64,000 nt of DNA. Source: a virus (lineage: Duplodnaviria; Heunggongvirae; Uroviricota; Caudoviricetes). The position numbers were made by a program, and so were the translations under genes. The stretch lies in IMG/VR virus record IMGVR_UViG_3300046642_001000, positions 103,935 through 167,934 of that record. One strand, written 5' to 3'. The notes under the pieces are model-generated. The model was not told the DNA's origin, searched no databases, and saw only the letters and a program-made list of their open reading frames with translations. Positions 21,454-44,712 of the stretch are shown in pieces. Every line of letters starts with the position of its first letter. Within the stretch, counting starts at the first letter, position 1.

Positions 21454-21464
21454 CGTGGTATAAT
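21454..21464 (+). promoter_or_regulatory. extended -10 promoter CGTGGTATAAT
   Basis: TGGTATAAT; the annotated ATG lies 10 nt after the hexamer, so the leader is near-absent. Confidence 0.45.
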
Positions 21465-21474
21465 GGATTTCACA

Positions 21475-22452
21475 ATGGCACTCCCGGTACCAGAGAATCT
21501 GGAAGACGCTGCCCTCGTGACCCACAAGGGTTGCATGGACGGCGCGGGATGCGCGATCATGTTCATGTTGGCGGGCGGGAAGCGTGAGAACATCCACTAC
21601 GTCGCCGCCGGCATGGTCGAGAGGTTCGTCAAGAAGGATCCCGTCTTCCAGTCGAACAAGTTCCTGATCTTCGCGGACGTCGGGCTCAACACCCCGAAGT
21701 ACGCCGAGGTCCTCGAGCGTCGTGGCAACCTGGTCCTCATCGACCACCACGACACGTCGCTCCACCTGCTGGGCCGTCACTGGGCGGAGATCGAAGAGAA
21801 GAACCAGCGCTGCGGCACGATGATGCTCAGGGACTACCTGATCAGGATCGACGACGAGAACAAGGTCGGATTCGGGCGGCGGCTCAAGAGCACGAGCTAC
21901 CGGATTTTCGCCGAGTCCATCGACGACCACGACCGCTGGCTACGCCAGAAGCTCCCGTTCTCGGAGGACCTGGCGACCTTCATGGTCTTCGTCGGCCAGC
22001 AGGACTTCATCACCCGCTTCGCCGACCCGAAGGACCGGATCTGTCAGAACATCGCGCTCGGTCGTGGCAAGGTCTACTTCACGCAGTTCGAGGACGACAT
22101 CATCAACATCCTCGACAGGCGTCGAGATGAGGCGATCGAGGAGGCCATGAAGAAGGTCACGGTGAAGGAGATCAAGCTCTCCGACGGGACCCAGGTGATC
22201 GGAGGGTTCGTCGTCACCAACGAGCCCAACATCTCTCTCCTCCTCAACCGGCTCCTGGAAGTCTACCCCCAGGTGCAGATGGCTGTCAGCGTCTGCATCG
22301 AGAAGGGGGCGGTCGGGATCCGCTCACGTGCCGGCGAGCTGGACGTTGGCCGGATAGCCGGCCTACTTGGTGGTGGCGGCCACAAAGGCGCCGCGGGGCA
22401 CAGGCTTCCGCAGGATCTGAGCGAAGTAATCCTGGAGCACATCTATGGCTGA
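21475..22452 (+). CDS. DHH-family phosphoesterase
   Basis: LIDHHDTS (DHH motif) and GGGGHKGAAG (DHHA1 GGGH motif); the ORF-table start at 21463 lies inside the -10, so the second ATG at 21475 is used. Confidence 0.7.
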   Translation: MALPVPENLEDAALVTHKGCMDGAGCAIMFMLAGGKRENIHYVAAGMVERFVKKDPVFQSNKFLIFADVGLNTPKYAEVLERRGNLVLIDHHDTSLHLLGRHWAEIEEKNQRCGTMMLRDYLIRIDDENKVGFGRRLKSTSYRIFAESIDDHDRWLRQKLPFSEDLATFMVFVGQQDFITRFADPKDRICQNIALGRGKVYFTQFEDDIINILDRRRDEAIEEAMKKVTVKEIKLSDGTQVIGGFVVTNEPNISLLLNRLLEVYPQVQMAVSVCIEKGAVGIRSRAGELDVGRIAGLLGGGGHKGAAGHRLPQDLSEVILEHIYG

Positions 22453-23398
22453 TATCCTCGGAGTCTCGTTCGACGACATCTTCGTCAAGCTCCTTCGGAA
22501 GCTGAGCCGGAACCCCGACTTCGTCTGCGCCCCGCGTGGACAGAAGATCAAGGAAGACCTGGCCCTCACGCTCGTCCTGACGGACCCGCGGTCCCGCTTC
22601 ATCCACAACCCGGCCCGGAAGTCGAACTACGGGTTCGCGGCCGGGGAGTTCCTCTGGTACTGGCAGGGTCGCCGGGATCTGGAGATGATGCTCTACTACA
22701 ACCGGCGGATGAAGGACTTCTCGGACGACGGCCACACGCTGAACTCGGCGTACGGCTACCGGCTCCGGGCGGGGTCCGACCTGCTGGACATGGACAGCCA
22801 GTGGAACAACTGCATCGCCACCCTGTCGGGGGACTCGGACAGTCGACGGGCGGTCATGACCATCTTCGCCCCGATCGACGCGGACGTGGCGGTGCACCAG
22901 GGATCGAAGGACGTGCCCTGCACCCTCTCGCTCCAGTTCTTCATCCGTGACGGCGCGCTCCACCTGCACGTCCACATGCGGTCCAACGACGCCATCTGGG
23001 GCCTGACGAATGACCTCTTCAGCTTCACGCTCTTCCAGGAGTGCATGTTCCTGGACCTGAAGCGGCAGAACCCGAAGTTCGCGGACCTGCGCCTCGGCCA
23101 GTACTACCACACGGCCGGCTCGCTCCACCTGTACGAGCGCCACTTCGAGATGGCCGAAGAGGTCATCAAGCTCTACGACGAGGGCTTCAGGTGCTACGAC
23201 GCCATGCCGGCCCTCACCAGCCTCGAGTCTCTGGACAAGCTGGGCTACGACGAGGAAGAGCTTCGCAAGCGTTACATCGACCAGATCCAGCTCTCCAAGT
23301 ACGAGGGCGGGGAGCTGTGGCTGGCCGACGAGTTGAATGTACACCGGCAAAAGAGGGACGCCGAAGAGTCCCTCAAGGGAGACAAGAAAGCAGGCTGA
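22445..23398 (+). CDS. thymidylate synthase (ThyA)-family protein, candidate pyrimidine hydroxymethylase
   Basis: VPCTLSLQFFIRDGALHLHVHMRSNDAIWGLTNDLFSFTLFQ aligns with the ThyA PCH..FQFYV...RS.D...G.PFNI core, but carries Thr where ThyA has His; RRAVMTIF matches the ThyA RR motif. Confidence 0.7.
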   Translation: MADILGVSFDDIFVKLLRKLSRNPDFVCAPRGQKIKEDLALTLVLTDPRSRFIHNPARKSNYGFAAGEFLWYWQGRRDLEMMLYYNRRMKDFSDDGHTLNSAYGYRLRAGSDLLDMDSQWNNCIATLSGDSDSRRAVMTIFAPIDADVAVHQGSKDVPCTLSLQFFIRDGALHLHVHMRSNDAIWGLTNDLFSFTLFQECMFLDLKRQNPKFADLRLGQYYHTAGSLHLYERHFEMAEEVIKLYDEGFRCYDAMPALTSLESLDKLGYDEEELRKRYIDQIQLSKYEGGELWLADELNVHRQKRDAEESLKGDKKAG

Positions 23399-23400
23399 AC

Positions 23401-23880
23401 ATGGGACAGAACATCCGCGATCAGATCAAGGACCTCGAGATCGAGGTCGCCCCGAGCTACCCGCCCAAGGAGTACTCGAGGTTCGACGACTTCACCCGGG
23501 TCACCGACCTGCGACGCGGTCAGGATCTGCTCTACATCGGGTCGAACGCGTACTTCCCCTCGGTGAAGCGCAACGTTCGCACCATCACGACCGTCAAGAA
23601 CAAGCGGGAGCTCGAGAAGCTCCTGTCGGCGGAGCGGGTCTTCGACCGCATCTTCATCGCCCGGGAGAACGTCCTGGACGAGCGGTTGGTCACGGCGGCG
23701 GTGCAGCTCACCGCGGCCAACGGACTGGTGTGCTTCTTCTCGGAAGACGAGGGGCTGCGCGCCGGGTTCCACGAGATCGTCGAGAAGAACTACCCGACGG
23801 CCCAGTCGTGGAACTGCAAGTCCAACGTCGGTCCGCTCGTCATGACCGACGCCAAGGGCAATCCGTCCTACCAGGATTGA
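23401..23880 (+). CDS. hypothetical protein
   Basis: 159-aa ORF immediately after the ThyA-like gene. Confidence 0.5.
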   Translation: MGQNIRDQIKDLEIEVAPSYPPKEYSRFDDFTRVTDLRRGQDLLYIGSNAYFPSVKRNVRTITTVKNKRELEKLLSAERVFDRIFIARENVLDERLVTAAVQLTAANGLVCFFSEDEGLRAGFHEIVEKNYPTAQSWNCKSNVGPLVMTDAKGNPSYQD

Positions 23881-23929
23881 TTGTCCCTGTGACCTCCGCT
23901 CCCATATTTAATCAGCGGAGGATCACAGA

Positions 23930-24307
23930 ATGAGCGCACTTCCCCCCGACATGTTGTACGACGTCTTCAAGCGTCAAGAGGAGTTCATGGAACTCCTGCG
24001 CGTGAACGACAAGCTTCCCGAGTGGCCGGTGGACCTCACCACCAAGCCCGGCCAACGCCTCATCAAGGAGACGGCCTTCAACCTCTCCGACGAACTCCAC
24101 GAGGCGATGGCCACCCTCAAGAACAAGATGCACCGGCTGACCGACGATCGCACCCTCGACTTCGGTCACTACAAGGAAGAGCTCGGGGACGCCTTCGCGT
24201 TCTTCCTCGAGATCTGTCTCCTCAGCGGGATCGGGGCGGACGACCTCTACGAGGAGTACTGCCGCAAGAACAAGACCGTCAAGGAAAGACTGGCCAAGGG
24301 CTACTGA
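23930..24307 (+). CDS. MazG-like nucleoside triphosphate pyrophosphohydrolase
   Basis: EELGDAFAFFLEICLL EExGD motif in an all-alpha context. Confidence 0.6.
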   Translation: MSALPPDMLYDVFKRQEEFMELLRVNDKLPEWPVDLTTKPGQRLIKETAFNLSDELHEAMATLKNKMHRLTDDRTLDFGHYKEELGDAFAFFLEICLLSGIGADDLYEEYCRKNKTVKERLAKGY

Positions 24308-24525
24308 TGGGCCGGTTGCCGGGAGACATCTGCGCCAGGTGCCTGACCCGTCAGGGGACGGAGATCTGGACGGAGGGTACGATGGCCTACATCCACGGCG
24401 CGTACCAGATGTACTGCAAGGTCTGCGTCCTGACCTGCCAGATCCAGCACGCCAAGGAACGGGCGGCGGCGATCCCGGAGATGGAGCGGGAACTGGAAGA
24501 GCTGAAGAAGGTGGTGGATGGATAG
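24307..24525 (+). CDS. small Cys-rich protein
   Basis: 72-aa ORF with CxxC ... C...C; ATGA overlap. Confidence 0.4.
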   Translation: MGRLPGDICARCLTRQGTEIWTEGTMAYIHGAYQMYCKVCVLTCQIQHAKERAAAIPEMERELEELKKVVDG

Positions 24526-24784
24526 AGGGTACGAGTGCCACCTGACGTTCGACGCTGAACAGGCGAAGCTCGCCGAGGCGTCGTGTCCCTACGGCTGGAA
24601 GTTCAGCCGGATCGAGGGCGATCCCGTCCTCGGCCAACGACTCTACTGCTACTGGACGGCGTGGCACGGGTCGCAGGGAGTGATCGAAGACGAGATGCGC
24701 GGCGCCATCAGACTGGCCAATCGCAACGGTCTCCCCCTGGTCAGGGCGAAGATCGAACACATCATCTACGACCAGAGGTACTAA
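24518..24784 (+). CDS. hypothetical protein
   Basis: 88-aa ORF. Confidence 0.4.
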   Translation: MDRGYECHLTFDAEQAKLAEASCPYGWKFSRIEGDPVLGQRLYCYWTAWHGSQGVIEDEMRGAIRLANRNGLPLVRAKIEHIIYDQRY

Positions 24785-25338
24785 TGAGCGTAGTCATCAA
24801 TCTCTACGGTGGACCGGGCACCGGCAAGTCCACCTCGGCGGCCTACCTCTTCTACCTGCTGAAGTCGCAGGGGAAGAACGCCGAGCTCGTGCGGGAGTAC
24901 GTCAAGGACTGGGCGTGGGAGGGTCGCACGATCTCCACCTACGACCAGATCTACCTGCTCGGCAAGCAGGTCCGTCGGGAGAGCTTCCTCTACGGGAAGG
25001 TGGACATGATCGTCACCGACGCCCCGATCATGCTGGGCATCTACTACGCCAGCAAGTTCTCTCCCCTCTCGGTCAGTGAGGGAGTCCGGGCCATGACCCT
25101 CGCCTACTACCGGCAGGCGGCCGAGGACGGCCACCAGCACCACCACGTCTTCCTGGAGCGCACCAAGCCGTACAAGCAGGAGGGTCGGTTCCAGAACGAG
25201 GAGCAGGCCAAGCAGATCGACAACGGCGTCTATGGGATGCTGTCCGACCTGCGGATCCCGCTTGTCCGATGCGGGACGCAAAGAGAAGATCTAGACGAGC
25301 TACTTACCACTCTGAAGGTAAACAACCCCAAGGCTTAG
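24784..25338 (+). CDS. P-loop nucleotide or nucleoside kinase-like protein
   Basis: Walker A YGGPGTGKST near the N-terminus; 184 aa. Confidence 0.6.
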   Translation: MSVVINLYGGPGTGKSTSAAYLFYLLKSQGKNAELVREYVKDWAWEGRTISTYDQIYLLGKQVRRESFLYGKVDMIVTDAPIMLGIYYASKFSPLSVSEGVRAMTLAYYRQAAEDGHQHHHVFLERTKPYKQEGRFQNEEQAKQIDNGVYGMLSDLRIPLVRCGTQREDLDELLTTLKVNNPKA

Positions 25339-25354
25339 CCTGGAGACTCTCGCG

Positions 25355-26419
25355 ATGAAGCGCACGACAAAGCTCAGGATCTTCTACAAGTCCAAGTCCT
25401 CAGGACAGGGTCACAATCCCTACCACACGGGCGGACTGGCGGCGAACGCGCTGCACACCGTCGGCGTCCTCCGTCGGGAGGGTGTAGACGTAGACCTCGT
25501 CGCCGTGTCCAGCTTCGACGAGCTGGCGGCCTACCTTCGGGCCAACCCGGACATCACCCACGCCGTCATCGAGGCGGTCTGGGTCAAGGCGTCCGAGGTC
25601 GTCCTCCTGTCCCACGCCCACCCCCACCTCAAGATCGTGGTGCGGGCGCACTCCAAGATCGGGTTCCTCCAGGTCGAGCCCGAGGCCATCCCGGTCATCC
25701 GGGCCCTCATCGACCTCGGGGAAGAGTACCCGAACATCTCTTTCTCCAGCAACAACCAGGAGTTCTGCAACTCTCTCGGGGAAGTCTACGGCGACGTGCT
25801 CTACCTGCCGAACCTCTTCGACTGGGACGGGTCTCCCCCGAAGAAGCACAGCCACGATCGCATCCTCAGGCTGGCTTCTTTCGGTGCCACCCGGCTCCTG
25901 AAGCTCCACTCTTCCGCGGCACTGGCGGCCCTTCAGGTCGCCGTCCGCCTCGACCGGCAGCTGGAGTTCTACGTCAATACCGACAATACCCCGGGAGGTC
26001 ACAGCGTCCGGAACACGATGCGGAACCTCTTCGCTGGTCTCCCCTGGGCGAAGCTGATCGAGGTGAGCTGGCAGGACGCGGCCACCTTCCGGGAGACCAT
26101 CGCTGAGATGGACCTGGTCTTCCAGCTGTCCGCCACCGAGACCTTCTGCCTGGTGGCCGCGGACGCCGTGTCCAGCGGGGTGCCAGTGATCGTCGGAGAG
26201 GCCGTCAGCTGGGTGCCGGAAAGGTACCAGTCCAACATCGACGACACCTCGGAGGCGGCAACCGAGGCCATCCGCGCACTGGAGAGCAGCCACAAGACGG
26301 TCAAGGTGCAGCAGGAAGCCCTGAACGACTTCGTGGAGTCTTCGACTCGGATCTGGCGCACGTTCCTCGGGATGCCGAGCGGACGGGAAAGCCGTAAGAA
26401 CCTCTGGTGGATTTTCTAA
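25355..26419 (+). CDS. GT-B fold glycosyltransferase (GT1/GT4-like)
   Basis: C-terminal SATETFCLVAADAVSSGVPVIVGE resembles the GT4 E..G..EAMA.G.PVI donor-binding block. Confidence 0.55.
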   Translation: MKRTTKLRIFYKSKSSGQGHNPYHTGGLAANALHTVGVLRREGVDVDLVAVSSFDELAAYLRANPDITHAVIEAVWVKASEVVLLSHAHPHLKIVVRAHSKIGFLQVEPEAIPVIRALIDLGEEYPNISFSSNNQEFCNSLGEVYGDVLYLPNLFDWDGSPPKKHSHDRILRLASFGATRLLKLHSSAALAALQVAVRLDRQLEFYVNTDNTPGGHSVRNTMRNLFAGLPWAKLIEVSWQDAATFRETIAEMDLVFQLSATETFCLVAADAVSSGVPVIVGEAVSWVPERYQSNIDDTSEAATEAIRALESSHKTVKVQQEALNDFVESSTRIWRTFLGMPSGRESRKNLWWIF

Positions 26420-26432
26420 AAAGGAGCAGCAC

Positions 26433-26738
26433 ATGGGATTCAATCTCGAACTGAACGGCAACCGCGTCGCCATCGACCTCGACGAGGTGGGTGACCAGAC
26501 GGAGAGCGGCCTCTACGTCCCGCAGACCGTCTCTCAGGAGGGCCCGAAGAAGGGCAAGGTGGTCGCGGTCAGCGAGACCTACCTCGTGAACGGGGCGACG
26601 GTGACCAGCAAGTTCAAGCCCGGAGACGCGGTCCTCATCGACGCCCTCGGCGGCATGAAGGCGACCATCAACCGTCGTGAGTACCTCGTCGTGCGGAACG
26701 AGGACATCCTCGGCCGCTACCTGCCGGAGGAAGCGTGA
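26433..26738 (+). CDS. groES: GroES-like co-chaperonin
   Basis: about 100 aa; the GKVVAVSE ... GDAVLIDALGG ... EYLVVRNEDILG pattern matches Cpn10. Confidence 0.65.
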   Translation: MGFNLELNGNRVAIDLDEVGDQTESGLYVPQTVSQEGPKKGKVVAVSETYLVNGATVTSKFKPGDAVLIDALGGMKATINRREYLVVRNEDILGRYLPEEA

Positions 26739-26935
26739 GCGCCTTCAAGCACCGCGGGGAAGACATCTCGGTCGACGAGGCTCCCCGCTTCAAGGAAGAA
26801 GGCTACACCGTCGACGGGAATGGCAAGGTGGTCTACAAGGCGAGCAGCCGGGTAGGCACGGCGTTCAACACGAGACCGGACAAGGCGGTCGACGACGTCA
26901 AGGAGATGATCGACAGAAACCTGGACGCGAAGTAG
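26735..26935 (+). CDS. small hypothetical protein
   Basis: 66-aa ORF. Confidence 0.4.
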   Translation: MSAFKHRGEDISVDEAPRFKEEGYTVDGNGKVVYKASSRVGTAFNTRPDKAVDDVKEMIDRNLDAK

Positions 26936-26939
26936 CAGC

Positions 26940-26950
26940 TGTGATATAAT
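26940..26950 (+). promoter_or_regulatory. extended -10 promoter TGTGATATAAT
   Basis: lies 6 nt upstream of the dnaE ATG, implying a leaderless transcript. Confidence 0.45.
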
Positions 26951-26956
26951 ACTCCT

Positions 26957-29900
26957 ATGCTCAAGGAGTTCGCCTCCTTTCACAACCATTCTCACTTCTC
27001 GGTCTTCGACGGCCTCTCCCTCCCGGAAGAGCTGCTGAAGGCCGCGAAGGAGAAGGGTCTCAAGTCCATCGCCCTCACCGATCACGGTGTGACACACGGT
27101 CACGCCGACTGGTACCTGATGGGGAAGAAGATGGGCGTGAAGACCGTCTTCGGCGTGGAAGCCTACGTCATCCACGACCTCAAGGAGTGGAAGGCGCTGA
27201 AGGGGGAGATCGACTCCCAGAAGCGGAAGGGCGCCAAGAAGGAAGACAACGAGTACACCGCCGACGGTGACGTCGTCGATCCCAAGGCCCTTCGACGCAA
27301 GGGCCACCTCGTCATCCTCGCCAGCAACCGGGAGGGTCTCAGCAACCTCTACCAGCTCACGTTCAAGGCCCACAAGTTTGGCTTCTACCAGAAGCCACGC
27401 ATGGATAAGGTGATGCTCCAGGAGCACGCCAAGGGCCTGATCGCGACCTCGGCCTGCATGGGCGGCGTCATCTCCAAGCGGCTGTGGGACCTGAAGGAAG
27501 GGTCCTGCACCTGGGAGGACGTCAAGAACGAGGTCCTCGACTACGACCGGATCTTCGGCCGTGGCCGGTTCTACCTCGAGCTCCAGTTCAACGAGATGGA
27601 CAAGGAGCAGAACTACATCAACACCTCCCTCGTCCAGCTCCACAAGGAGACGGGCGTCCCGCTGACGGTGACCACGGACTCACACTACGCCACCCAGGCG
27701 GAGTGGGAGCCACGAGAGCTTCTCCACCTCATGGGCTGGAGCAAGAAGACGGTCGCCGACCTGCCGGAACAGAAGCTCGACTCACAGGTCAAGCAGCTCT
27801 TTGTGAAGTCTCCCGAGGAGATGTGGCTCACCTACGAGAAGCTGGCCGGTCACTGCATCGATCCGAAGACCGCGATGGAGGCGTTCCAGGGGACGCTCCT
27901 CATCGACAGCCTCATCGAGGACTTCGAGCCCGACACTCACCAGCGCCTGCCCACCCTCCCCTTCGCCAATCCCTACAAGGAGATGGGCATGCGGGCCATC
28001 GCCGGCCTGAAGAAGCTGGGACTGGCGGAGAACGAGATCTACAAGGACCGCCTCCTCTTCGAGCTCGGGGTCATCAAGCAGAAGGGGATCTCGAACTACT
28101 TCCTCGTCTGCCAGCAGATCATCGAGGAAGCCAAGAAGTACATGCTTGTCGGTCCAGGCCGCGGCTCAGCCGCCGGCTCCCTCGTGTGCTGGTGCCTGGG
28201 CATCACGGACCTCGACCCGATCAAGAGAGACCTGCTCTTCGAACGCTTCCTCGACATCGACCGCGCCGAGCTCCCCGACATCGACACGGACTTCGAGGAT
28301 CCCAAGGCCGCCAAGCGGATGCTTCAGAAGATGTTCGGGGACGACAACGTCGCCTCCCTCAGCTCGTACGGCACGTTCCAGATCAAGGGACTGCTGAAGG
28401 ACCTGGGGCGTGTGTACGGCGTCGACCACAACCTCATCAACAAGCTCAACCGGCAGATCGACAAGGAGCTCAAGGTCCTCTACGTGGACCAGGACAAGAG
28501 CACCCTCGTGGTCAAGCTGGACGACATCATCCGGGTCAGCCCGTCGTTCAACACCTTCGTGGAAGAGAACCCCGACCTGGGCAGCAAGATCAAGACTCTC
28601 TACGGCCGGATCAGGCACGTCACCCGGCACGCGGCTGGTGTCATCATCGGCGACAACCTGCCGGCGGAGACCAGCTGCTTCGTCGCCAAGGCCAAGGGCA
28701 AGAAGACCAAGGACAACGAAGACGGGGAGGACGACACACTGGCCGAAGAAGGCGAGATGGTCGTCCAGTGCTCGTTCACCGAGGGCATCGTCAACAAGAA
28801 CCTCTCGGCCATGGGCTTCGTCAAGATGGACATCCTCGGGCTGGCCAACCTGCGCGTCATCCGGTGCGCCCTGGAACACATCAGCTCACGGACCGGCAAG
28901 AGCTTCGACGAACTCTACGAGGGACTGCGTTCGCACAACATGGACCTCGATGACATCAAGGTCATGAAGAACATCTTCTGGGACGGGAACTTCGGAGCCA
29001 TCTTCCAGTTCTCGAACCCGGGCATCCGGGCGCTGGCCAAGCGGGTCAAGCCGGACAGCTTCGTCGACGTCTCGGCCATCTGCTCTCTCTACCGCCCCGG
29101 CCCGCTCAAGGGTGGGTATGACAAGGTCTACGTCACGGCGAAGCACGGGGAGATCGCCTCCCTCGGTCACCCGGTGCTGGACGAGATCCTCGGTTCGACC
29201 AAGGGCTGCCTCGTCTTCCAGGAGCAGCTCATGAAGGTCTGCTCCGTCTTCGGCAAGATGACGGGCAAGGAAGTCAACCGCGTCCGCAAGGTCCTGCTGA
29301 AGAAGGACAAGAGCAAGACGGAAGAGTTCTTGAAGCAGGAGAACGACGTCCTCTACGCCAGCTTCCACAAGGGCTGCATGGAGCACGGCTTCCCCGAAGA
29401 CAAGACCCTGAAGCTCTGGGAAGACATCAAGGCCTTCGGCGGCTACGCCTTCAACAAGAGCCACTCGGATGCCTACTCCCTCACCACGATGCAGACGGCG
29501 CACCTGGCGACCTACTACCCGCTGGAGTTCTACACGGCGGCCCTGACGAAGGCGCAGGCCAACGCGATCCAGACTCTGGTGGCAGACATCCAGAAGACGG
29601 GGATCAAGATCCTCCCGGTGGACATCAACAAGAGCCGGGCGGCCAACATCATCGAGGGCCTGTGCATCCGGCTGGCCCTCGGACGTGTCCTCGGCGTGGG
29701 TCCGTCCGTGATCGAAAAGATCGTGGCCAACCAACCATACACCTCGTTCCAGGACTTCCTCGACAGGTCCAAGGCCAACAAGACGGCGGTCGAGGCGCTC
29801 ATCCAGGTGGGAGCCTTCGGGTCTCTCCCCGGCTGCGGCAACATCAAGCGGCTCTGGGAGGCATACCGGAAGTGGACCGACAACGTCCTCGTCACCCTCG

Positions 29901-30793: not shown

Positions 30794-31096
30794 ATGACCA
30801 AGGACAACAACGGCCCGTACAGCATCGGGTCGACGTTCTGGCCTGGGCTCTCGAAGCTCGTCGAGGAGTGCGGCGAGGTCGTCCAGGTGGTGGGCAAGTT
30901 GCTTGGCACCGGGGGAGAGACCAAGCACTGGAACGTCCCCGACCTCAAACGCGCCCTAGAGGAGGAGATCGCCGACGTGATGGCGGCCTGCTCTTTCGTG
31001 ATCGAGGAGTGCCAGCTGGACGCGGGGTTCGTGTACACCCGCTACCAGATGAAGAAGGAACGCTTCAAAGAATGGCACAACGGCAGCAAACTGTGA
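30794..31096 (+). CDS. MazG-like NTP pyrophosphohydrolase, second paralogue
   Basis: LVEECGEVVQ and LEEEIADVMA motifs. Confidence 0.6.
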   Translation: MTKDNNGPYSIGSTFWPGLSKLVEECGEVVQVVGKLLGTGGETKHWNVPDLKRALEEEIADVMAACSFVIEECQLDAGFVYTRYQMKKERFKEWHNGSKL

Positions 31097-31102
31097 TACA
31101 AT
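31092..31102 (+). promoter_or_regulatory. extended -10 promoter TGTGATACAAT with the upstream gene's stop codon embedded
   Basis: the TGA of the MazG-like gene supplies the TG-n; a GGAGG Shine-Dalgarno-containing leader follows. Confidence 0.4.
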
Positions 31103-31121
31103 AACAATCCTGGAGGCAACA

Positions 31122-32951
31122 ATGACCATCGCAACCGTGCTCGCGTTCTGGTGGGTCGTACCCATCGTCCTGACCCTCGTGCTCTACAAGTTCGTGCTCC
31201 GGCTCTGCTTCGGGATGGTCTCCGTCTCGAAGGACGAGGTCGGCATCGTCGACAAGAAGTTCGCCCTCTTCGGCGCGAAGACCCTGCCCGACGGTGCCGT
31301 CATCGCCCTGAAGGGTGAGGCCGGCTTCCAGGCGGACACGCTGGCCCCTGGCGTCCACTTCGGCCTCTGGCCGTGGCAGTACGCGGTCACCCTCCAGAAG
31401 TTCGTGAACATCCCGGAGAACCACGTCGGGCTCATCGAGTCGCGAGGTGGCCAGGTTCCGGTGAACGGTCGAGTCCTCGCGCGAAAGGTCGAGTGTGACT
31501 CGTTCCAGAACGCCCGCGCCTTCCTCGAGGCAGGCGGAGAACGTGGTCCCCAGATCGCCATCATCACCCCCGGCACCTACCGCATCAACACGGTCCTCTT
31601 CTCCCTGAGGATCGTGGAGGCTCTCGAGATCCCCGACAACATGGTCGGCGTGGTCACCACCAAGGACGGCAAGCCCCTCTCGACCGGTGACATCGCCGGC
31701 GGAGAGTTCCCCGGCCACAACATGTACCAGGACGGCGAGGCCTTCATCACCGCCGGTGGCTACAAGGGCCTGCAGGAGCAGGTCATCCTGGCCGGCCTGT
31801 ACTACATCAACCCGCTCTTCGCCACCGTGGAAGTGAAGCCGATGACCGAGGTGCCCATCGCCAATGCTGGCGTGGTCATCGCCTACGTCGGTGGGGTCGG
31901 TGTGGACGTCACGGGTGAGTCCTTCAAGCACGGCAACCTCGTGGTCCGTGGGCAGAAGGGTGTGTGGGTCGAGCCGCTGGACCCGGGCAAGTACCCGATC
32001 AACCCGTACACCCACAAGGTCGAGGTCGTGCCGACGGCCAACGTCGTCCTCAACTGGGCGACCGGCAAGACCGAGGCGCACAAGCTGGACGCCAACCTGT
32101 CCACCATCACGGTGCGTAGCTCCGACGGCTTCAAGTTCAATCTGGACGTGAGCCAGATCATCCACATCCCCCGGACCGACGCCCCCAAGGTCATCGCCCG
32201 CTTTGGCAGCGTGGCCAACCTGGTCACCCAGGTCCTGGAGCCGACCATCGGCAACTACTTCAGGAACGCGGCCCAGGGCTCGGACGCCATCGCCTTCCTC
32301 AAGGAGCGCGAGAAGCGCCAGCAGGACGCCCGGGCTTCCATCAACAACGCCCTGAAGGAGTACAACGTCGGAGCGGTGGACACCCTCATCGGTGACATCA
32401 CCCCGCCGGACGCCCTCATGGAGACCCTGACGAAGCGGAAGATCGCCGAGCAGGAGAAGATCACGTTCGACACCCAGCGCATGGCCGAGGAGACCCGCAA
32501 GGAGTTCGAGCAGGCCAAGGCGATGGCGGCCACCCAGGCCAACGTCGTCGAGTCCCAGCGGAAGGTCCAGATCGCCGAGTTCGACGCCCAGTCGGCGGTC
32601 AAGAAGGCGGAAGGCGACGCCCAGTCCAAGACCATCAACGCCAAGGCGGATGCCGAGGTGCTCGTGGCCATCGGTGACGCCGAGGGCAAGAAGATCACGG
32701 CGGTCGGCACGGCCGAGGCCGAGGTCATCCAGAAGAAGACCGACGCGAACGGCAAGGCCAACTACGCCCTCATCGAGGTGGCACGCGCCCTCTCCTCGTC
32801 CGGTCACGCCCTGGTCCCGGAGATCATGGCCGGTGGCGGTCTCGACGGCAACAACCAGGGCGGCCTGGTGAACGTCCTCCTGGCCGGCCTCATCAAGGAC
32901 GGCCTCTCGAAGAACGGCAGCAACGGCGGCGGCACTCCCGAGTCCCACTAA
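31122..32951 (+). CDS. flotillin/SPFH (band 7) family membrane protein
   Basis: N-terminal transmembrane segment, an SPFH-like domain, and a long Ala/Glu-rich coiled coil (EAEVIQKKTDANGKANYALIEVARAL). Confidence 0.65.
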   Translation: MTIATVLAFWWVVPIVLTLVLYKFVLRLCFGMVSVSKDEVGIVDKKFALFGAKTLPDGAVIALKGEAGFQADTLAPGVHFGLWPWQYAVTLQKFVNIPENHVGLIESRGGQVPVNGRVLARKVECDSFQNARAFLEAGGERGPQIAIITPGTYRINTVLFSLRIVEALEIPDNMVGVVTTKDGKPLSTGDIAGGEFPGHNMYQDGEAFITAGGYKGLQEQVILAGLYYINPLFATVEVKPMTEVPIANAGVVIAYVGGVGVDVTGESFKHGNLVVRGQKGVWVEPLDPGKYPINPYTHKVEVVPTANVVLNWATGKTEAHKLDANLSTITVRSSDGFKFNLDVSQIIHIPRTDAPKVIARFGSVANLVTQVLEPTIGNYFRNAAQGSDAIAFLKEREKRQQDARASINNALKEYNVGAVDTLIGDITPPDALMETLTKRKIAEQEKITFDTQRMAEETRKEFEQAKAMAATQANVVESQRKVQIAEFDAQSAVKKAEGDAQSKTINAKADAEVLVAIGDAEGKKITAVGTAEAEVIQKKTDANGKANYALIEVARALSSSGHALVPEIMAGGGLDGNNQGGLVNVLLAGLIKDGLSKNGSNGGGTPESH

Positions 32952-35326: not shown

Positions 35327-35528
35327 GGATTTCTGTTTCTGGCTGCAGGGGTTCTTCGAGATCCAGGATCCCAAGACCCTGGACGAGAAGCAGCTCGAGG
35401 CCGTGAAGAAGCATCTCTCTCTCGTGTTCATCCACGAGATCGACCCGTCCATGGGCGGCAAGAAGGAGCAGGACAAGCTCAACCAGGCGCACCACGGTCC
35501 TGGCAAAGACCTTCTCATGCGCTGCTAA
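35316..35528 (+). CDS. small hypothetical protein
   Basis: 70-aa ORF; GAGGAG Shine-Dalgarno 7 nt upstream. Confidence 0.4.
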   Translation: MTSRDFCFWLQGFFEIQDPKTLDEKQLEAVKKHLSLVFIHEIDPSMGGKKEQDKLNQAHHGPGKDLLMRC

Positions 35529-35540
35529 CTGTGGTATAAT
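35508..35540 (+). promoter_or_regulatory. promoter with a GACCTTCTC upstream element at the fixed 27-nt spacing to GTGGTATAAT
   Basis: same architecture as the GTCCTT-type promoters further downstream; the ATG follows 6 nt after the hexamer. Confidence 0.4.
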
Positions 35541-35546: not shown

Positions 35547-36758
35547 ATGCGAATCGGATATTCCTACTGGGGCTTCCTCGGAGATCACAAACGCGAGGGC
35601 GGTGAGGCCGTCTCCACACCGGACGGGAACGCCGCATACTCCTGGAGCATCATCTGGGAGCTTCTGCAACGGGACTACACGGTCTACACGATGCAGAAGG
35701 ATCGCGACCGCGAGGGCTGGATGAAGTATGGCCGGGACCTCTTCGCCTCGTTCAGTGAGGAGAAGCGGACCGAGGCCTACCTCGGCATCGAGCGGACCAA
35801 CGGGGTGGACCTCCCCGAGCTGGACGTCCTGCTGGTCGAGTGGAGGTTCCCGATCTTCGGACGGAACTGCTGCTCGTGGGAGGGCGCGCCCTGCTTCCCC
35901 AGCGACGCGAAGAGCGGCCAGCCCATGATGGCCTCGGGGTACGCCGACAAGAAGATCGAGCTCCAGCCCGACCTCTTCAGGCAGTACGAGATCCTGCGGT
36001 ACTATAAGGAGCGGGGCACCAAGCTCATCTTCTGGGACCTGGACCACAAGCTCCTGGGCCACGACGAGATCACCTGGTCTCCAGACGCGGTCTTCGAGAC
36101 TTCGAAGAAGCCGCTGCACCTGGTCACCAGGCGGACCAGCGTGGAGTTCCCCACCATCGTGGCGGACCTCATGCAGCACCCGACCCTCGAGGCGGACGAG
36201 AACCGGAAGCTGGTCTACATCGGCAGCCGGTACGAGCGGGACGACGTCATCACCAAGTGGCTGAAGCCCGTCTCGGACTCTTTCCCGGGGCAGGTGGAGT
36301 TCTGGGGCAACTGGATGCGGACGGTCGAAGAGTGCAAGAAGCTCTGGCCGAACGTGAGCTACAACGACCGGATCACCATGGCGGACTTCCGCCGGGTCTA
36401 CGGGTCGGCGGTGGCCTGTCCGATCCTGGCGAAGCAGAGCTACCTCGAGACAGGGTTCATCACCCCGCGTCCGTGGGAGGCGCTCATGTTCGGTACGATC
36501 CCGGTGGGGCTCGGCTCTCACCTCGGCATCTCTTCCTACGTCCAGCCGGGCCTCATCGCCGGCGACGGGTGGGACATGATCGAGGTGGTGAAGACCCTGA
36601 CCGGACTTCCCCTCAAGGAGCGGGACCGCATCCGCAGAGAGAACGTCGAACAGATCGAGCACATGGACGCCCGGTACTTCGTCGACAGAATCGAGGACGT
36701 GGCCAATGATGTGGTGGACATGGGTGAAGACCTACTTATCGAGAAAGAAGGAGCCTGA
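35547..36758 (+). CDS. putative glycosyltransferase
   Basis: 403 aa; position and size fit a nucleic-acid sugar transferase; no decisive motif, so the fold assignment is tentative. Confidence 0.4.
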   Translation: MRIGYSYWGFLGDHKREGGEAVSTPDGNAAYSWSIIWELLQRDYTVYTMQKDRDREGWMKYGRDLFASFSEEKRTEAYLGIERTNGVDLPELDVLLVEWRFPIFGRNCCSWEGAPCFPSDAKSGQPMMASGYADKKIELQPDLFRQYEILRYYKERGTKLIFWDLDHKLLGHDEITWSPDAVFETSKKPLHLVTRRTSVEFPTIVADLMQHPTLEADENRKLVYIGSRYERDDVITKWLKPVSDSFPGQVEFWGNWMRTVEECKKLWPNVSYNDRITMADFRRVYGSAVACPILAKQSYLETGFITPRPWEALMFGTIPVGLGSHLGISSYVQPGLIAGDGWDMIEVVKTLTGLPLKERDRIRRENVEQIEHMDARYFVDRIEDVANDVVDMGEDLLIEKEGA

Positions 36759-36759
36759 C

Positions 36760-38222: not shown

Positions 38223-38231
38223 GAGGGATCC

Positions 38232-39154: not shown

Positions 39155-39170
39155 CACCTGGAACCACTAT

Positions 39171-39181
39171 TTTGGTATAAT
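39171..39181 (+). promoter_or_regulatory. extended -10 promoter TTGGTATAAT
   Basis: 13-nt leader to the ATG at 39195. Confidence 0.4.
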
Positions 39182-39194
39182 AGGACAGGTGAGC

Positions 39195-40019: not shown

Positions 40020-40186
40020 GCTGGATCGGCGACTGTTGGTGCTGTCCCGCTCCTCCGCGGGACGAGGGACCTCAAGAGAACGGATCGAACGTCGTGAAGC
40101 ACCGGACCCGCGGTGGTCGTGGGGTGGTCGCTCAGGCGAACTCCAAGGGGAAGCGAGAGCTTCCGAAGAAGAAGAGGAAGCGATGA
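40016..40186 (+). CDS. small basic protein
   Basis: 56-aa Arg/Lys-rich ORF with an ATGA overlap on both sides. Confidence 0.35.
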   Translation: MSWIGDCWCCPAPPRDEGPQENGSNVVKHRTRGGRGVVAQANSKGKRELPKKKRKR

Positions 40187-40494: not shown

Positions 40495-40653
40495 CCACAG
40501 CACAAGAAGGATCAAGCTGCGGGCGAGCTGTTCAAGTCGCCAGGACGAAGCGGTAAGCAATGAGGACCGCGACGGACACTACCAGATACCGGGCAAGAAG
40601 TCGAAGAAGGAGCGCAGGCGGATCAGGCGCCGCTTCGAGGGAACGGGGGATGA

Positions 40654-41442
40654 ATGAGAGTATGTCACTTCAGCGACTGGCACAGCGACCGGAACAAGCT
40701 TCCGGCGGCTGACCTGTACGTCTGCACAGGGGACATGTTCCCGAACTTCCCTCTCCTGCAGCTGGAGAACAAGTGGGGGCGTGACAAGAAGCTGTGGCGC
40801 GCCAACATGCACCTCTTCAAAGAGGGGGATGTCGCTCCTCCGGGATGGCCCGTCGGTCGGGAGTTCGATCCCGAGTTCGAGGCGGTGCACCAGAAGCGGT
40901 GGGTCAAGGAGGTTCTCAATTCCTACCGTGACCTCATGCCGGCGGAAAGCCGGGACAACCCGGTCATCTGCGTCCGTGGCAACCACGACTTCGCAGACCT
41001 CTCTGATGCGTTCGGAGGGGACGTGTGGGAGGTCAACCTAGATCCATCCCGGACCACCGTTGTTCACGGCCTGAAGGTCGGTGGGTGCCGTGGCATACCT
41101 CAGATCGTTGGGGAGTGGAGCGACGAGTTCGAGGAGAGCGGGAAGCCGCCGGAGGGTCTCATGATCCGTCCGAACCAGGGGAACTTCGATGAGGTGGTCA
41201 CTCACCTGCCCACCGACATCGAGCTCCTCCTGACCCATGCGCCGCCGTACGGGATGCTGGATGCTGAGGGAAACCACTACGGTTCCCGCGCCGTCCGGAG
41301 CTACATCAACGAGCGGCTCTACGTCTGGGGCAAGGTGCGTGCCCACTTCTTCGGACACGTTCACATGTCCCGAGGGAACCGGAGCGAGGCAGGGATCCTC
41401 TTCAGCAATGCAGCTCGTGGACACTTTGTGTACGAGTTGTGA
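40654..41442 (+). CDS. calcineurin-like metallophosphoesterase
   Basis: GDMF, GNHD and GHVH motifs. Confidence 0.7.
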   Translation: MRVCHFSDWHSDRNKLPAADLYVCTGDMFPNFPLLQLENKWGRDKKLWRANMHLFKEGDVAPPGWPVGREFDPEFEAVHQKRWVKEVLNSYRDLMPAESRDNPVICVRGNHDFADLSDAFGGDVWEVNLDPSRTTVVHGLKVGGCRGIPQIVGEWSDEFEESGKPPEGLMIRPNQGNFDEVVTHLPTDIELLLTHAPPYGMLDAEGNHYGSRAVRSYINERLYVWGKVRAHFFGHVHMSRGNRSEAGILFSNAARGHFVYEL

Positions 41443-41448
41443 TAGAAT
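41438..41448 (+). promoter_or_regulatory. extended -10 promoter TGTGATAGAAT with an embedded stop codon
   Basis: the TGA stop of the phosphoesterase gene forms the TG-n of the motif. Confidence 0.4.
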
Positions 41449-41502
41449 GGTATGTATAGGCACATCTGTTTCCCGGACTCCGGGAAGAAAGGACTGAAGT
41501 AC

Positions 41503-42063
41503 ATGAGAACGATTCTGGCACTGGGGGTCGCCATGCTGATGCTGGCCGGCTGCCCGAACTACGGGGAGGTCAGCTGGGAGCACTGGCCGCCGACTCAGTC
41601 GGAGCCCACTCCGACCGCGACGGTCGCCGATATGTCCACCCCGCAAGCGCCGGGACCGGACATGACGACAGCCCCGACTCCTCCGGACATGGCCGTGGCT
41701 TCGAGCCCCGACATGTCCACCGCACCCGCCGACATGGCCACCACTCCGCCGGACATGACGACCGGTGGGCAGTGCGACCTCGGCCACGCCCCGCCGCCCG
41801 ACATGGCGAAGCGTGACTGCGACGGCGACTGCGACGACTGCAAGCTGAAGTGTCACAAGGATCACGACGACCGAGACAAGGACAACGACGACCACCACAA
41901 GCAGTGCATCGACGGCACCCCCAAGCTCCACGATCCGAACAAGGGGCGGGACTTCTGTGACAGAGAAGACCACGACCGGCGCAAGCACTGCCAGGACCAG
42001 GACAACGACTGCGTCCTGAAGTGCAAGAAGGACAAGGACGACTGCCACAAGGGGGGCAACTAA
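41503..42063 (+). CDS. lipoprotein with PDM repeats and a Cys/His/Asp-rich C-terminus
   Basis: lipobox LAGC; PDMTTAPTP-PDMAVASS-PDMSTAPA-DMATTP-PDMTT repeats; the C-terminal 90 aa is rich in Cys, Asp, His and Lys. Confidence 0.55.
   Translation: MRTILALGVAMLMLAGCPNYGEVSWEHWPPTQSEPTPTATVADMSTPQAPGPDMTTAPTPPDMAVASSPDMSTAPADMATTPPDMTTGGQCDLGHAPPPDMAKRDCDGDCDDCKLKCHKDHDDRDKDNDDHHKQCIDGTPKLHDPNKGRDFCDREDHDRRKHCQDQDNDCVLKCKKDKDDCHKGGN
41645..41765 (+). repeat. imperfect tandem repeat encoding PDM(S/T)TAP units
   Basis: CCGGACATG / CCCGACATG recurs five times at a 21-27 nt period. Confidence 0.45.
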
Positions 42064-42064
42064 C

Positions 42065-42871
42065 ATGATCCGCCATATCCTCATCGCAGCACTGCTGGTG
42101 TGCGTGCCCACCCTCGGCCTGACCGCGGAGCACAAGCCCGGCGAGTGCTACCAGAAGACCATCACGGTCTGCGTCCCGAAGAAGAAGAAGGTCATCAAGG
42201 CCCCCGAGGTCGTGGTCACCCCCACGCCCGAGACGGTCATCGTCGCCCCGGCCCCTGAGCCGGTGGTCGTGGAGCGGACCGTCATCAAAACCGTCCCCGG
42301 CCCGACCAAGGTCGTCGAGAAGCCCTGCACCCGGCCCCACGTGACCGAGTGCGAAGCCAAGGACAGCGACCCCCGTTTCGGCATCTACGGCGCCGCAGGC
42401 GTCGGGGTACGTGACCAGTACTACTCGGTGAACCTCGGCATCCAGGTCCGCGTCCCGAAGGCTCACCTCGGCTTCCGGATCTTCAGCGCGATCGATCGTG
42501 GCATCGGGGCCCAGGGCCTGATCTATGTCTACCAGGGCAAGAGGGTCCTGGTCCACGTCGTCGACCCCGGCATCCAGGCGACGGGCACGGTGTTCAGCTA
42601 CAACAACAACACCGACGTCCCCCGCAGCCTGGACATGATCCTCGGCGCCGGTGTGCAGGTCAAGCTCAAGTGCGACCTGGCCCTGCTCATCGACTGGCGT
42701 GTGAACCTCGCCGACCCGGTCTACCTGGCCCAGAACAACGGGGTCCTGGTGTCCACCGGCCCGAACAGCGCCAGGTACCTCGACGCCCCGCACGTGGTCG
42801 GGAACTCGTTCTCCAGCTCCCAGCTGATGCTCGGTCTGCTCTGGGACCTGCCCGTCGGCAAGGGACGGTAG
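42065..42871 (+). CDS. secreted protein, possibly beta-rich
   Basis: signal peptide MIRHILIAALLVCVPTLGLTA; Pro/Val/Thr-rich linker, then alternating hydrophobic pattern. Confidence 0.5.
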   Translation: MIRHILIAALLVCVPTLGLTAEHKPGECYQKTITVCVPKKKKVIKAPEVVVTPTPETVIVAPAPEPVVVERTVIKTVPGPTKVVEKPCTRPHVTECEAKDSDPRFGIYGAAGVGVRDQYYSVNLGIQVRVPKAHLGFRIFSAIDRGIGAQGLIYVYQGKRVLVHVVDPGIQATGTVFSYNNNTDVPRSLDMILGAGVQVKLKCDLALLIDWRVNLADPVYLAQNNGVLVSTGPNSARYLDAPHVVGNSFSSSQLMLGLLWDLPVGKGR

Positions 42872-42875
42872 AGCC

Positions 42876-43139
42876 ATGATGCGCCTACTGGCACTGGTCG
42901 TTCTTCTCGTTGGCTGTGGTGACATGCAGGCGGCACCCCAAGGTGTGGACCTGGCTCGGACGGCTGACCTCTCGGAGCCCTACTCGGGTGACGACTGGCA
43001 GCCGGACGGTGGAGATGTTCCGCAGGGCGGTGGGTATGACCCGTGCCAGTACGCCATCTGCAACAACCCCGACGACCGGGTGAAGTACTCCGACCCGGCT
43101 CCCTTCGTTCCTTCCCTCCCGCTCCCCTTCACTCCTTAG
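42876..43139 (+). CDS. small lipoprotein
   Basis: lipobox LVGC after MMRLLALVVLL. Confidence 0.5.
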   Translation: MMRLLALVVLLVGCGDMQAAPQGVDLARTADLSEPYSGDDWQPDGGDVPQGGGYDPCQYAICNNPDDRVKYSDPAPFVPSLPLPFTP

Positions 43140-43161
43140 CTCCCGACATCAGGAGTTTTCC

Positions 43162-44028
43162 ATGGATCGCGTCGATGACATCTACGGCGACGGTATCGGA
43201 TACGTGCACCTTCTGGACAGCATGGGGGACGAGTTCACTCCCGCCGAGGACGCCCGCACCAGCACCAACAAGGGGCGCCTCGGTCCGGAGAAGGACGCGG
43301 CTCTCCAGGAACGTCTGACCAAGGACGCTCACACCTCCCCGTTCGAGGGGGTGGTGGTCAAGGTGGAGATCATGACCCCGCTCTTCGTCCTCAGGGAGCT
43401 GGACCGCCACCGCACGGTATCGAAGGTCGCCGACGAAGATGTGGAGATCATCACCCCTGAGGAGTCTGGCCGGAAGTGGTTCGCTCGCAACGAGATGAGC
43501 GGCCGCTACGTCCAAATGCCGAACCTCTACTACCACCCGGTCCAGGTTCGCGCCCAGAGCAAGACGAACATGCAGGGCGGCGGACCGATCCAACTGGTGG
43601 ACGACGCGGTGGCTCGGGAGTTCAAGGAGTCTGGCCAGGTTCTCTGTATGATGGCCCGGGACCTCTATGACCGGGCAGTCGCTGCCGGAGTCGAGAAGGG
43701 GATCGCCCGCATCTACAACACCCAGAACCAGTACACCAAGATCAGACTCACAGGAAGCCTCAAGAACTTCTGTGACTTCCTGTACCTCCGGCTACCAGGG
43801 GTGGTGCTGTGGGAGTGTCGGAGAGTCGCCGAGGCGCTCGAGGAGCTGCTGAAGGAAGCTTTCCCCTCTCCCATGGAGCAGTGGCGCAGGAACATCTACG
43901 AAACTGTCCGACTGACCAAGGCCGATCGAGCGGCGCTGGTCGAGATGATGGACGCCTTGGGAGAGTTCGGAGACGAGTCACTGCTTCCGGCAGAGTGGCA
44001 GTCGGCCCTAGCAAAGGTGAGGGGATAG
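43162..44028 (+). CDS. thyX: flavin-dependent thymidylate synthase (ThyX)
   Basis: ThyX signature LDRHRTVSKVADEDVE ... SGRY (RHR-x7-8-S ... SxRY). Confidence 0.75.
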   Translation: MDRVDDIYGDGIGYVHLLDSMGDEFTPAEDARTSTNKGRLGPEKDAALQERLTKDAHTSPFEGVVVKVEIMTPLFVLRELDRHRTVSKVADEDVEIITPEESGRKWFARNEMSGRYVQMPNLYYHPVQVRAQSKTNMQGGGPIQLVDDAVAREFKESGQVLCMMARDLYDRAVAAGVEKGIARIYNTQNQYTKIRLTGSLKNFCDFLYLRLPGVVLWECRRVAEALEELLKEAFPSPMEQWRRNIYETVRLTKADRAALVEMMDALGEFGDESLLPAEWQSALAKVRG

Positions 44029-44036
44029 GTATCGCC

Positions 44037-44696
44037 ATGAATGACAACCTGAACGGCAGTCACCGCAACGGTCCGCAGAACGCTGAGGATGGAGACATCC
44101 TCCCCGAGATCCGGCCCGAGCTGGTGGAAGCTGCCACACAAGCACCGCAGTTCGACAGCACGAACTACATGGCCGAGAACAAGTCTCGGTTCCCGCCGGC
44201 CCCGGGCAAGATCCCGAAGGACGCCCGGCCGGAGGAGCGGATGGCGATGATCGCCACCGGCGCCCCGATCGAACGGGTACGAGAGCTCCAGAGCCTGCCC
44301 AATCCTGGTCTGATCCAGGAGTCGATCGAGAAGCTGGGCACCGCCTTCCTGACGGGGGATCCGGAGATCGACCAGCTCTACGCGGAGTGCATCAAGTGCT
44401 TCGCCGAGAAGGGCGCCGAGTACACGGTCGGTAGCAAGGATCGCCTCGCCAACTTCAGGGGTGTCGCCCAGGACGTGGACGTCCCGATGGAGAAGGTCTG
44501 GTACACCTTCTTCAACAAGCACCTTCGCGCCCTCCAGTCGTACATCAAGAACGGCTGCACCGTGAAGAGCAACGAGCCGATCCGGAGCCGCATCATGGAC
44601 CTGATCGTCTACCTCACCCTCTTCCACAAGATGAGCCTCGAGATCGAGCGGAAGCGCGAAGAGGCGCTCCGGGCAGAACACGGTGTCATCTCGTAG
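44037..44696 (+). CDS. hypothetical protein
   Basis: 219-aa ORF. Confidence 0.5.
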   Translation: MNDNLNGSHRNGPQNAEDGDILPEIRPELVEAATQAPQFDSTNYMAENKSRFPPAPGKIPKDARPEERMAMIATGAPIERVRELQSLPNPGLIQESIEKLGTAFLTGDPEIDQLYAECIKCFAEKGAEYTVGSKDRLANFRGVAQDVDVPMEKVWYTFFNKHLRALQSYIKNGCTVKSNEPIRSRIMDLIVYLTLFHKMSLEIERKREEALRAEHGVIS

Positions 44697-44712
44697 GATC
44701 CTGTAGTATAAT
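44680..44712 (+). promoter_or_regulatory. promoter: TCTCGTAGG element then TGTAGTATAAT
   Basis: shares the TCTCGTAG core with the promoter at 60159; ATG follows 8 nt after the hexamer. Confidence 0.4.

Follow-up and report, generated by a model that had tools for sequence, protein, structure and literature searches.

Does an uncultured phage build promoters into the stop codons of its own genes? This question is raised by a 64 kb stretch of DNA (hereafter the window, considered over its full length) belonging to a ~205 kb metagenomic contig (JGI 3300046533, Ga0495640_0000011). The window has 62% guanine and cytosine (GC), a GC content at third codon positions (GC3) near 0.9, and carries nearly every gene on the + strand. 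At 26940, 31092 and 41438, an 11-bp element of the form TGTGATA(T/C/G)AAT follows or contains the stop codon of the preceding gene, and the original prediction took these elements for a separate third promoter style, an extended -10 element lacking the upstream boxes of two other promoter classes (A and B) and economically embedded in a stop codon. We conclude that the sites are probably sigma-70-family extended -10 promoters of an uncultured phage of roughly 200 kb and 62% GC. As proposed, they would be of the extended -10 kind, since they appear to have every sequence property of a sigma-70-type extended -10, lie on the gene strand and are conserved where their flanks have diverged.

Exact matches to TGTGATANAAT occur at 26940, 31092, 41438 and 51218, all four on the + strand, for 0.00 expected from dinucleotide shuffles; the three positions initially listed are exact, and the fourth had been missed. 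With one mismatch allowed, six sites were found against 0.48 expected, which adds TGTGGTATAAT at 35530. The wider core TGNTANAAT has 11 occurrences on the + strand and 1 on the - strand (0.51 expected for both strands summed), and the bare hexamer TANAAT has 17 and 4. All 11 gene-strand TGNTANAAT sites are followed by a gene start within about 60 nt, and the motif sites, on the gene strand, stand 6-58 nt upstream of a start codon. This strand ratio of the core, 11:1 in the window, amounts to 24:1 in relatives of the phage, GTGNTANAAT having 24 gene-strand occurrences and a single opposite one across 14 of them (35-62% GC).

The exact copies and the 35530 site all read TGTG-n-hexamer, with T-15 G-14 placed exactly one base before the hexamer. 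The hexamer is TATAAT at 26945 and 51223, TACAAT at 31097 and TAGAAT at 41443: T-12, A-11 and T-7 are constant, and variation is confined to position 3, among the copies as well as between the window and the relative L118. The base n following TGTG is free (A in the window, G in the relative L106). The leading C included in the original prediction is present at 26939 and 31091, and is a T at 41437. In bacteria, the extended -10 consensus consists of T-17 R-16 T-15 G-14 and, after one further base, TATAAT, and the Bacillus subtilis promoter sinP3, TGTGcTATAAT, is cited as a perfect extended -10 consensus without a -35 element (PMC6212719). Base for base, TGTGATAnAAT reads as this published full consensus, TGTG-n-TAnAAT. 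Like the extended -10 class represented by sinP3 (PMC6212719) and by Escherichia coli galP1, the window sites combine T-17 G-16 T-15 G-14, a free base and TAnAAT with no strong -35. Unlike sinP3 and galP1, their activity is predicted from sequence, three of the six sites without an upstream box have a weak -35-like hexamer (4/6 matches), and the elements lie on or beside upstream stop codons in a very compact phage genome. A CRP/FNR-type site (TGTGA-N6-TCACA) was considered and rejected, the second half-site being missing at all four copies. Terminator-like structures beside the sites were counted too, and their number does not exceed that of shuffles.

The relatives allowed these junctions to be compared at several distances. 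An identical copy of the DnaE gene of the window is present on 21 contigs, and homologs at 43-76% identity occur across a large family of contigs, ~200 kb each, from uncultured phages. In L106, a relative found by metagenome scan with 74.8% nucleotide identity over window positions 25762-27320, the junction upstream of DnaE reads TAG-CGAC-TGTGGTATAAT-AGGCGT-ATG, against TAG-CAGC-TGTGATATAAT-ACTCCT-ATG in the window. The stop, all 10 specified motif bases (TGTG, TATAAT), the 6-nt spacing and the ATG are retained, and the six changes in the 21-nt gap are confined to the spacer, n and the four bases preceding the motif (hypergeometric estimate 462/54264 = 0.009). In L118, whose Metallophos protein is 86% identical, CTGTGATATAAT retains the same embedded TGA and 10 of the 11 motif bases. 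There, a leucine codon has changed from TTG to CTG with the TG preserved; only 8 of the 22 nt after the motif are identical, and the hairpin stem and ribosome-binding site that follow are retained with a different loop. Furthermore, L111 (Band_7 protein 62% identical) has TGTGATACAGT upstream of its ortholog, in open intergenic DNA. All three sites initially listed appear supported by relatives. In addition, TGTGATATAAT overlaps the TGA stop of DnaE in L015, where a small membrane-protein gene begins 7 nt further on and Band_7 comes next, and the L017 ortholog of the gene starting at 44721 has GTGATATAATAGGAACAATATG upstream, the two proteins being only 30% identical. The contigs L001-L010 (99.4-100% identical) have no single-nucleotide polymorphism in the promoter cassettes, an identity that is uninformative because such polymorphisms are so few overall.

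The spacing between these elements and start codons, overlooked in the original prediction, says more on mechanism than the stop overlap does. In the 74 kb formed by the window and a 10 kb extension, an ATG follows the hexamer at 5-9 nt (mostly 6) in 16 of 28 GTGNTANNNT sites, for a background rate of 5.2% (p = 5e-14). With 6 nt between hexamer and ATG, the expected transcription start falls on the A of the ATG, implying a leaderless mRNA. This spacing to an ATG without Shine-Dalgarno sequence is found at 26957, at 35547, 47156, 54178 and 60199 and at many class B genes; gaps without the motif carry GGAG-type ribosome-binding sites instead. In the Thermus phage phiYS40, a -10 motif is known to lie 6-7 bp ahead of leaderless genes. 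In Deinococcus-Thermus, a -10 motif 6-7 bp upstream of open reading frames (ORFs) is a validated leaderless promoter, and Actinobacteria have the same -10-adjacent leaderless pattern (PMC12340547; PMC3160421). Like those of Deinococcus radiodurans (PMC12340547; PMC3160421), the window genes split into -10-led and GGAG-led groups; unlike the loose TANNNT of high-GC leaderless hosts, the window hexamers are near-consensus TAnAAT with TG. Automatic or longest-ORF calls place several starts inside or upstream of the hexamer (21463 vs 21475; 41452 vs 41503; 52121 vs 52133; 60824 vs 60944), and judging by the promoter positions the downstream ATG (21475, 41503, 52133, 60944) is probably the real start.

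Among the three sites first described, only 26940 is of the leaderless type, leaders with a ribosome-binding site being present at the other two. The conserved N-terminus MLKEFASFHNHSHFS, which matches the family consensus, fixes the start of DnaE, and an in-frame TGA lies 15 nt upstream; the DnaE ATG at 26957 lies 6 nt past the hexamer, behind a spacer (ACTCCT) without Shine-Dalgarno, so that a leaderless DnaE transcript beginning at or beside A26957 is predicted. The 31097 hexamer and the Band_7 ATG are 19 nt apart, with GGAGG in between, and the predicted leader is short (about 13-15 nt). From the 41443 hexamer, 54 nt lead to the ATG at 41503 of a lipoprotein gene (MRTILALGVAMLMLAGC), for a predicted leader of about 48 nt. 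The 51218 copy, with about 58 nt between it and the ATG at 51287, is built like the 41443 site, with a small hairpin and GAAAGGAC in its leader. In both long leaders the small hairpin directly precedes the GAAAGGAC ribosome-binding site (41469-41494; 51250-51277), and the 41469-41487 stem has its counterpart in L118 (about 2360-2385); such a hairpin could serve to stabilise the 5' end or to control translation.

Regarding the stop codons themselves, upstream stops were taken from gene tables and cross-relative homology. A TGA stop does supply the TG at 31094 and 41440, as claimed: a MazG-like ORF (Pfam PF03819; 30794..31096) and a Metallophos ORF (PF00149; 40654..41442) end there, the three bases of each TGA (31094-31096, 41440-41442) serving as T-15, G-14 and n in the promoter element. 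At 26940 the motif follows the preceding stop, the ORF 26735..26935 closing on TAG 26933-26935 four bases earlier, and the gene upstream of the 44702 site stops at TAG 44694-44696. Overlap between stop and promoter recurs in at least five relatives, either as TGA within GTGA (L012 19837-19839, L015 5725-5727, L017 20990-20992, L021 17617-17619) or as TAA within TATAAT (L012 at the DnaE stop; L016 8385-8387), and the overlapping upstream ORFs are each a real gene according to gene table or homology. The overlap is nonetheless incidental, a by-product of packing a stop-rich motif into gaps of 13-25 nt, because GTGA-TATAAT by itself closes two of the three reading frames, and because only two window GTGA sites use their TGA as a stop (about one third to one half, as frame chance predicts). 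Moreover, the Metallophos ortholog of L012 has the same VYEL-stop end with a TAG and no promoter, and in L111 the promoter TGTGATACAGT is present with no gene ending on its TGA. An AT-rich hexamer hardly fits coding DNA at a GC3 near 0.9, and in gaps of 13-25 nt it must therefore touch a stop. The proposed promoter-in-stop-codon economy exists as an overlap at two sites; it follows from packing and is no mechanism in itself. A literature search for earlier accounts of stop-codon/promoter overlap returned nothing specific.

Neither does TGTGATA define a promoter style of its own, because the core (T/C)GTG(R)TAnAAT, common to about 20 gene-strand sites, also underlies classes A and B; TGTGATAGATT is present inside a class B promoter, and the A is free. 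These core-sharing sites fall into three upstream contexts, class A, class B and boxless (Table 1). The boxes of classes A and B both end 19 nt before the hexamer, and none is in register at the three sites of the original prediction when aligned on the hexamer, in agreement with that prediction; the 41438 site does have a GTGTAC, 9 nt from the hexamer and hence out of the class B register (18). The 35530 site has a class A-like box, GACCTTCTC, in register and is not truly boxless. The set of three sites was incomplete, as the boxless group comprises, besides the missed copy at 51218, the sites at 39176 and 44707, neither of which has the TGTGATA form, the latter lacking T-15 G-14. Boxless sites are set apart by the missing upstream box and by a T-17 that completes TGTG, most boxed sites (classes A and B) reading CGTG; T-17 is found at 6/6 boxless against 7/22 boxed sites (Fisher p = 0.005, post hoc and with small n). 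They are concentrated in the module for replication and nucleotide metabolism; class B sites are concentrated among small ORFs.

In class A, the box reads (A)GTCCTT(C/T)(C/T)C, with its end 19 nt ahead of the hexamer; the stop codon of the upstream gene, TAG or TAA, often forms its beginning (TAGTCCTTCCC). Class B promoters are very regular and laid out as (T)TCCTGTGTAC, 13 nt, (C/T)GTG(G/A) and TA(T/G)A(T/A)T, then often AAGACC-ATGGA(A/G)AA, at a density of about one per small ORF (roughly 12 in 10 kb), and as a set resemble an early-gene array of leaderless transcripts. Middle promoters of phage T4 pair a MotA box at -30 with an excellent extended -10. The likeness, a shared -10 core plus a class-specific box in place of the -35, concerns the neighbouring classes A and B and not the boxless sites; unlike in T4, the window boxes are GTCCTTCCC and GTGTAC, and no MotA/AsiA homolog was identified.

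Table 1. Candidate promoters and associated features (window coordinates unless a contig is named)
Feature	Position	Strand	Description
Class A, hexamer positions	47144, 52120, 60186, 60932, 62740, 63043; 35535 in register	+	Box GTCCTTCCC
Class A, locations	47117-47149, 52093-52125, 55607-55640, 60159-60191, 60905-60937, 62713-62745, 63016-63048; also 35508-35540		
Class B, hexamer positions	21459, 52560, 54166, 57571, 58552; about a dozen more in the 10 kb past the window	+	Box GTGTAC
Class B, locations	21436-21464, 52537-52565, 54140-54171, 57545-57576, 58526-58557; L095 11240-19700 (10 kb beyond the 3' end of the window)		
Boxless, hexamer positions	26945, 31097, 39176, 41443, 44707, 51223	+	No class A or B box in register
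Putative DnaE promoter TGTGATATAAT	26940..26950	+	TGTG 26940-26943, n 26944, TATAAT 26945-26950
Putative Band_7 promoter TGTGATACAAT	31092..31102	+	Hexamer TACAAT 31097-31102; TGA 31094-31096 inside
Band_7 translation start	31112..31124	+	Shine-Dalgarno GGAGG 31112-31116; ATG 31122; 609-aa SPFH/Band_7 membrane protein
Putative lipoprotein-gene promoter TGTGATAGAAT	41438..41448	+	Hexamer TAGAAT 41443-41448; TGA 41440-41442 inside
Leader of the 41443 promoter (predicted)	41469..41505	+	Hairpin 41469-41487 (UUCCCGGA/UCCGGGAA); GAAAGGA 41488-41494; ATG 41503
Fourth exact copy TGTGATATAAT	51218..51228	+	191-nt intergenic region; no stop codon involved; hexamer 51223
One-mismatch site TGTGGTATAAT	35530..35540	+	Just after TAA stop 35526-35528; ATG 35547, 6 nt past hexamer
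Boxless extended -10 TTTGGTATAAT	39171..39181	+	GTG 39189 at 7 nt, called ATG 39195 at 13 nt past hexamer
Boxless -10 TGTAGTATAAT	44702..44712	+	TG at -17/-16 only; ATG 44721, 8 nt past hexamer

In extended -10 promoters, an extra contact by sigma region 3 replaces the contact between sigma region 4 and the -35 (PMC6212719; PMC3950348). At the window sites, sigma region 2 would read the TAnAAT hexamer and region 3 (2.5) the T-17 G-16 T-15 G-14 extension, contacts that would make a strong -35 contact unnecessary; with the latter dispensable, a complete promoter would fit into 11 bp, within gaps of 13-25 nt or over the final codons of the gene before it. With TGA in one frame of the motif and TAA in another, an upstream gene running into it would end there. 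Transcription would start about 7 nt past the hexamer, with outcomes ranging from the leaderless DnaE mRNA to the short Band_7 leader with its Shine-Dalgarno and the longer, hairpin-bearing leader of the lipoprotein gene. The complete TGTG of the boxless sites would be consistent with the absent -35-region box being offset by a fuller upstream extension. Initiation by RNA polymerase at these sites, the sigma factor used (host sigma-A being the simplest candidate) and any timing role are inferred from the sequences.

Several observations weigh against this explanation. The classes were drawn up once the data had been seen, and counts are low. A 4/6 match to TTGACA with a 16-18 nt spacer exists at three boxless sites out of six (26945, 44707 and 51223), for instance a weak -35-like TGGACG at a 17-nt spacer from the 26945 hexamer, and the summed TTGACA score of the boxless sites beats that of random positions (P = 0.013); at the remaining boxless sites the best match is 2-3/6. 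The hairpins of the 5' untranslated regions are not significant by fold energy alone (z = -1.1 for 41469-41487, and -2.1), the comparison with L118 being the single line of support for the former. In addition, distant relatives (L012, L013, L014, L016) mostly have no promoter at the matching junctions, so that positional conservation holds only at close range. Finally, a phage-encoded sigma factor or polymerase might be involved, our scan having covered ~74 of the ~205 kb; Pfam detected no sigma factor in the larger proteins of the window.

Displacement of sigma region 4 is known from gp39 of the Thermus phage P23-45 and from AsiA of T4. The same promoters might therefore be read by a phage-encoded sigma or a phage-remodelled polymerase, the boxless sites being a temporal class active when sigma region 4 is displaced, a scenario that we consider rather unlikely. 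It would agree with a single core present under three upstream contexts and in relatives of 35-62% GC, which probably have different hosts, with the separate clustering of boxless and class B sites, and with the precedent of P23-45, whose middle and late promoters are extended -10 without -35 and whose gp39/gp76 switch favours phage transcription when -35-dependent initiation is blocked (PMC3950348). As in P23-45, phage promoters of the extended -10 class, here putative and with no strong -35, occur in a fairly GC-rich genome alongside other promoter classes. By contrast with P23-45, to which the phage is unrelated, no gp39/gp76 homolog or phage RNA polymerase was identified in the window by general scans, and only a -35-region box distinguishes the other two classes, whose -10 core is the same. 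Furthermore, no sigma, AsiA-like or gp39-like domain was detected in at least 40 window proteins by general Pfam and PHROGs scans, which included no targeted homology search, and the core being the universal housekeeping-sigma consensus, a special factor is not needed.

The remaining alternatives dispense with a promoter altogether. In cluster A mycobacteriophages, stoperators are 13-bp repressor sites that lie, all facing one way, in short gaps between genes and stop elongation (PMC9283540). The motif shares this layout, being short, asymmetric, located in short gaps, always oriented with transcription and often touching stops, and could in principle be the binding site of a phage DNA-binding protein. 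Unlike stoperators, it matches a promoter consensus at a fixed distance to start codons, and a 6-7 nt distance to ATGs without Shine-Dalgarno would be meaningless for an operator. Its conserved and variable positions follow the sigma contacts (T-12, A-11 and T-7 fixed; hexamer position 3 and n variable), it is common to relatives of very different GC when operators usually diverge with their repressor, and no repressor gene was seen, which makes this reading very improbable. Even less credit can be given to non-functional by-products of stop-rich, AT-rich spacers in a GC-rich genome: such spacers are the only AT-tolerant DNA at this GC3, and stops contribute TGA and TAA, but the 11-mer occurs four times for 0 expected, the relatives have the 24:1 strand bias, L106 and L118 conserve exactly the motif bases, and motif-free spacers carry GGAG sites. 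A role at the RNA level, on a read-through polycistronic mRNA, as an A/U-rich translation enhancer, re-initiation signal or processing site, would provide the non-Shine-Dalgarno translation route needed by DnaE and several other genes that lack a Shine-Dalgarno and start 13-24 nt after the previous stop. However, no RNA role is known for the TGTG or for the TG at -15/-14, the 41443 and 51223 elements lie 54-58 nt from starts having their own ribosome-binding sites, and the distance from motif to stop is not conserved, leaving this role just as slim a probability. We thus retain extended -10 promoters as the favoured explanation.

Considered as a whole, the window holds replication and nucleotide-metabolism genes and many small ORFs without assigned function; PolA-like polymerase, SSB, UvsX/RecA, DnaB, ribonucleotide reductase, ThyA, ThyX, dCMP deaminase and DnaE were identified. 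No close DNA match to the window was found among GenBank phages, its DnaE-type polymerase is <30% identical to that of any cultured or GenBank phage (tblastn), and a scan of the whole window for RNA genes returned zero tRNA and zero Rfam family. Relatives with a related DnaE differ widely in composition (L011, 76% identical, 39.5% GC; L015, 74% identical, 48% GC; L020 and L021, 35-36% GC; 62% in the window). With closely related DnaE proteins in genomes more than 20 GC points apart, it is evident that hosts of very different composition are used within the phage family, and gene order and promoter type are retained across it despite this spread.

The sole convincing minus-strand gene of the window encodes DUF7487 (53777-54130; GC3 0.93). 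A 2301-aa ORF (5616-12521), with only a cytidylyltransferase-like domain at residues 1522-1679 and weak kinase-like matches at about residues 1150-1207, appears to be a giant multidomain enzyme rather than the tape measure that one might expect from its size. It lies within a stretch of ~20 kb (~1700-21400) without any gene-strand TAnAAT or extended -10 site, which is either one long operon or served by another promoter type; a canonical-looking TTGACA-17-TGTATT is found at about 13090-13120. Upstream of 21400, the exception is an in-gene TACAAT at 529, without TG and without a nearby start. Finally, an inverted repeat (51128-51157), TTTTCCTTCC-TATAATA-AAGGAAAAAAA, located in the 191-nt gap ahead of the 51218 site, encloses a TG-less TATAAT and, read on the minus strand, would resemble a terminator.

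If these sites are neatly packed promoters, they are ordinary, and the stop overlap teaches nothing new on transcription. It is possible, if somewhat doubtful, that the phage family systematically builds micro-cassettes of 13-24 nt (stop, promoter, leaderless ATG) that re-initiate genes without an untranslated region, with the boxless class perhaps the sole one active, as a temporal class, after a phage factor disables -35 recognition; were this true, the stop overlap would mark a genome-wide design rule and not a curiosity. In either case, the overlap illustrates how an 11-bp, -35-free promoter allows near-zero intergenic space, and start codons and transcription units may be called from TGTG-n-TAnAAT in this phage lineage. 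For about half of the promoters, leaderless translation is implied, a hint that the host copes well with leaderless mRNA, and three upstream contexts on one core offer a hypothesis for temporal control in an uncultured group of ~200 kb phages.

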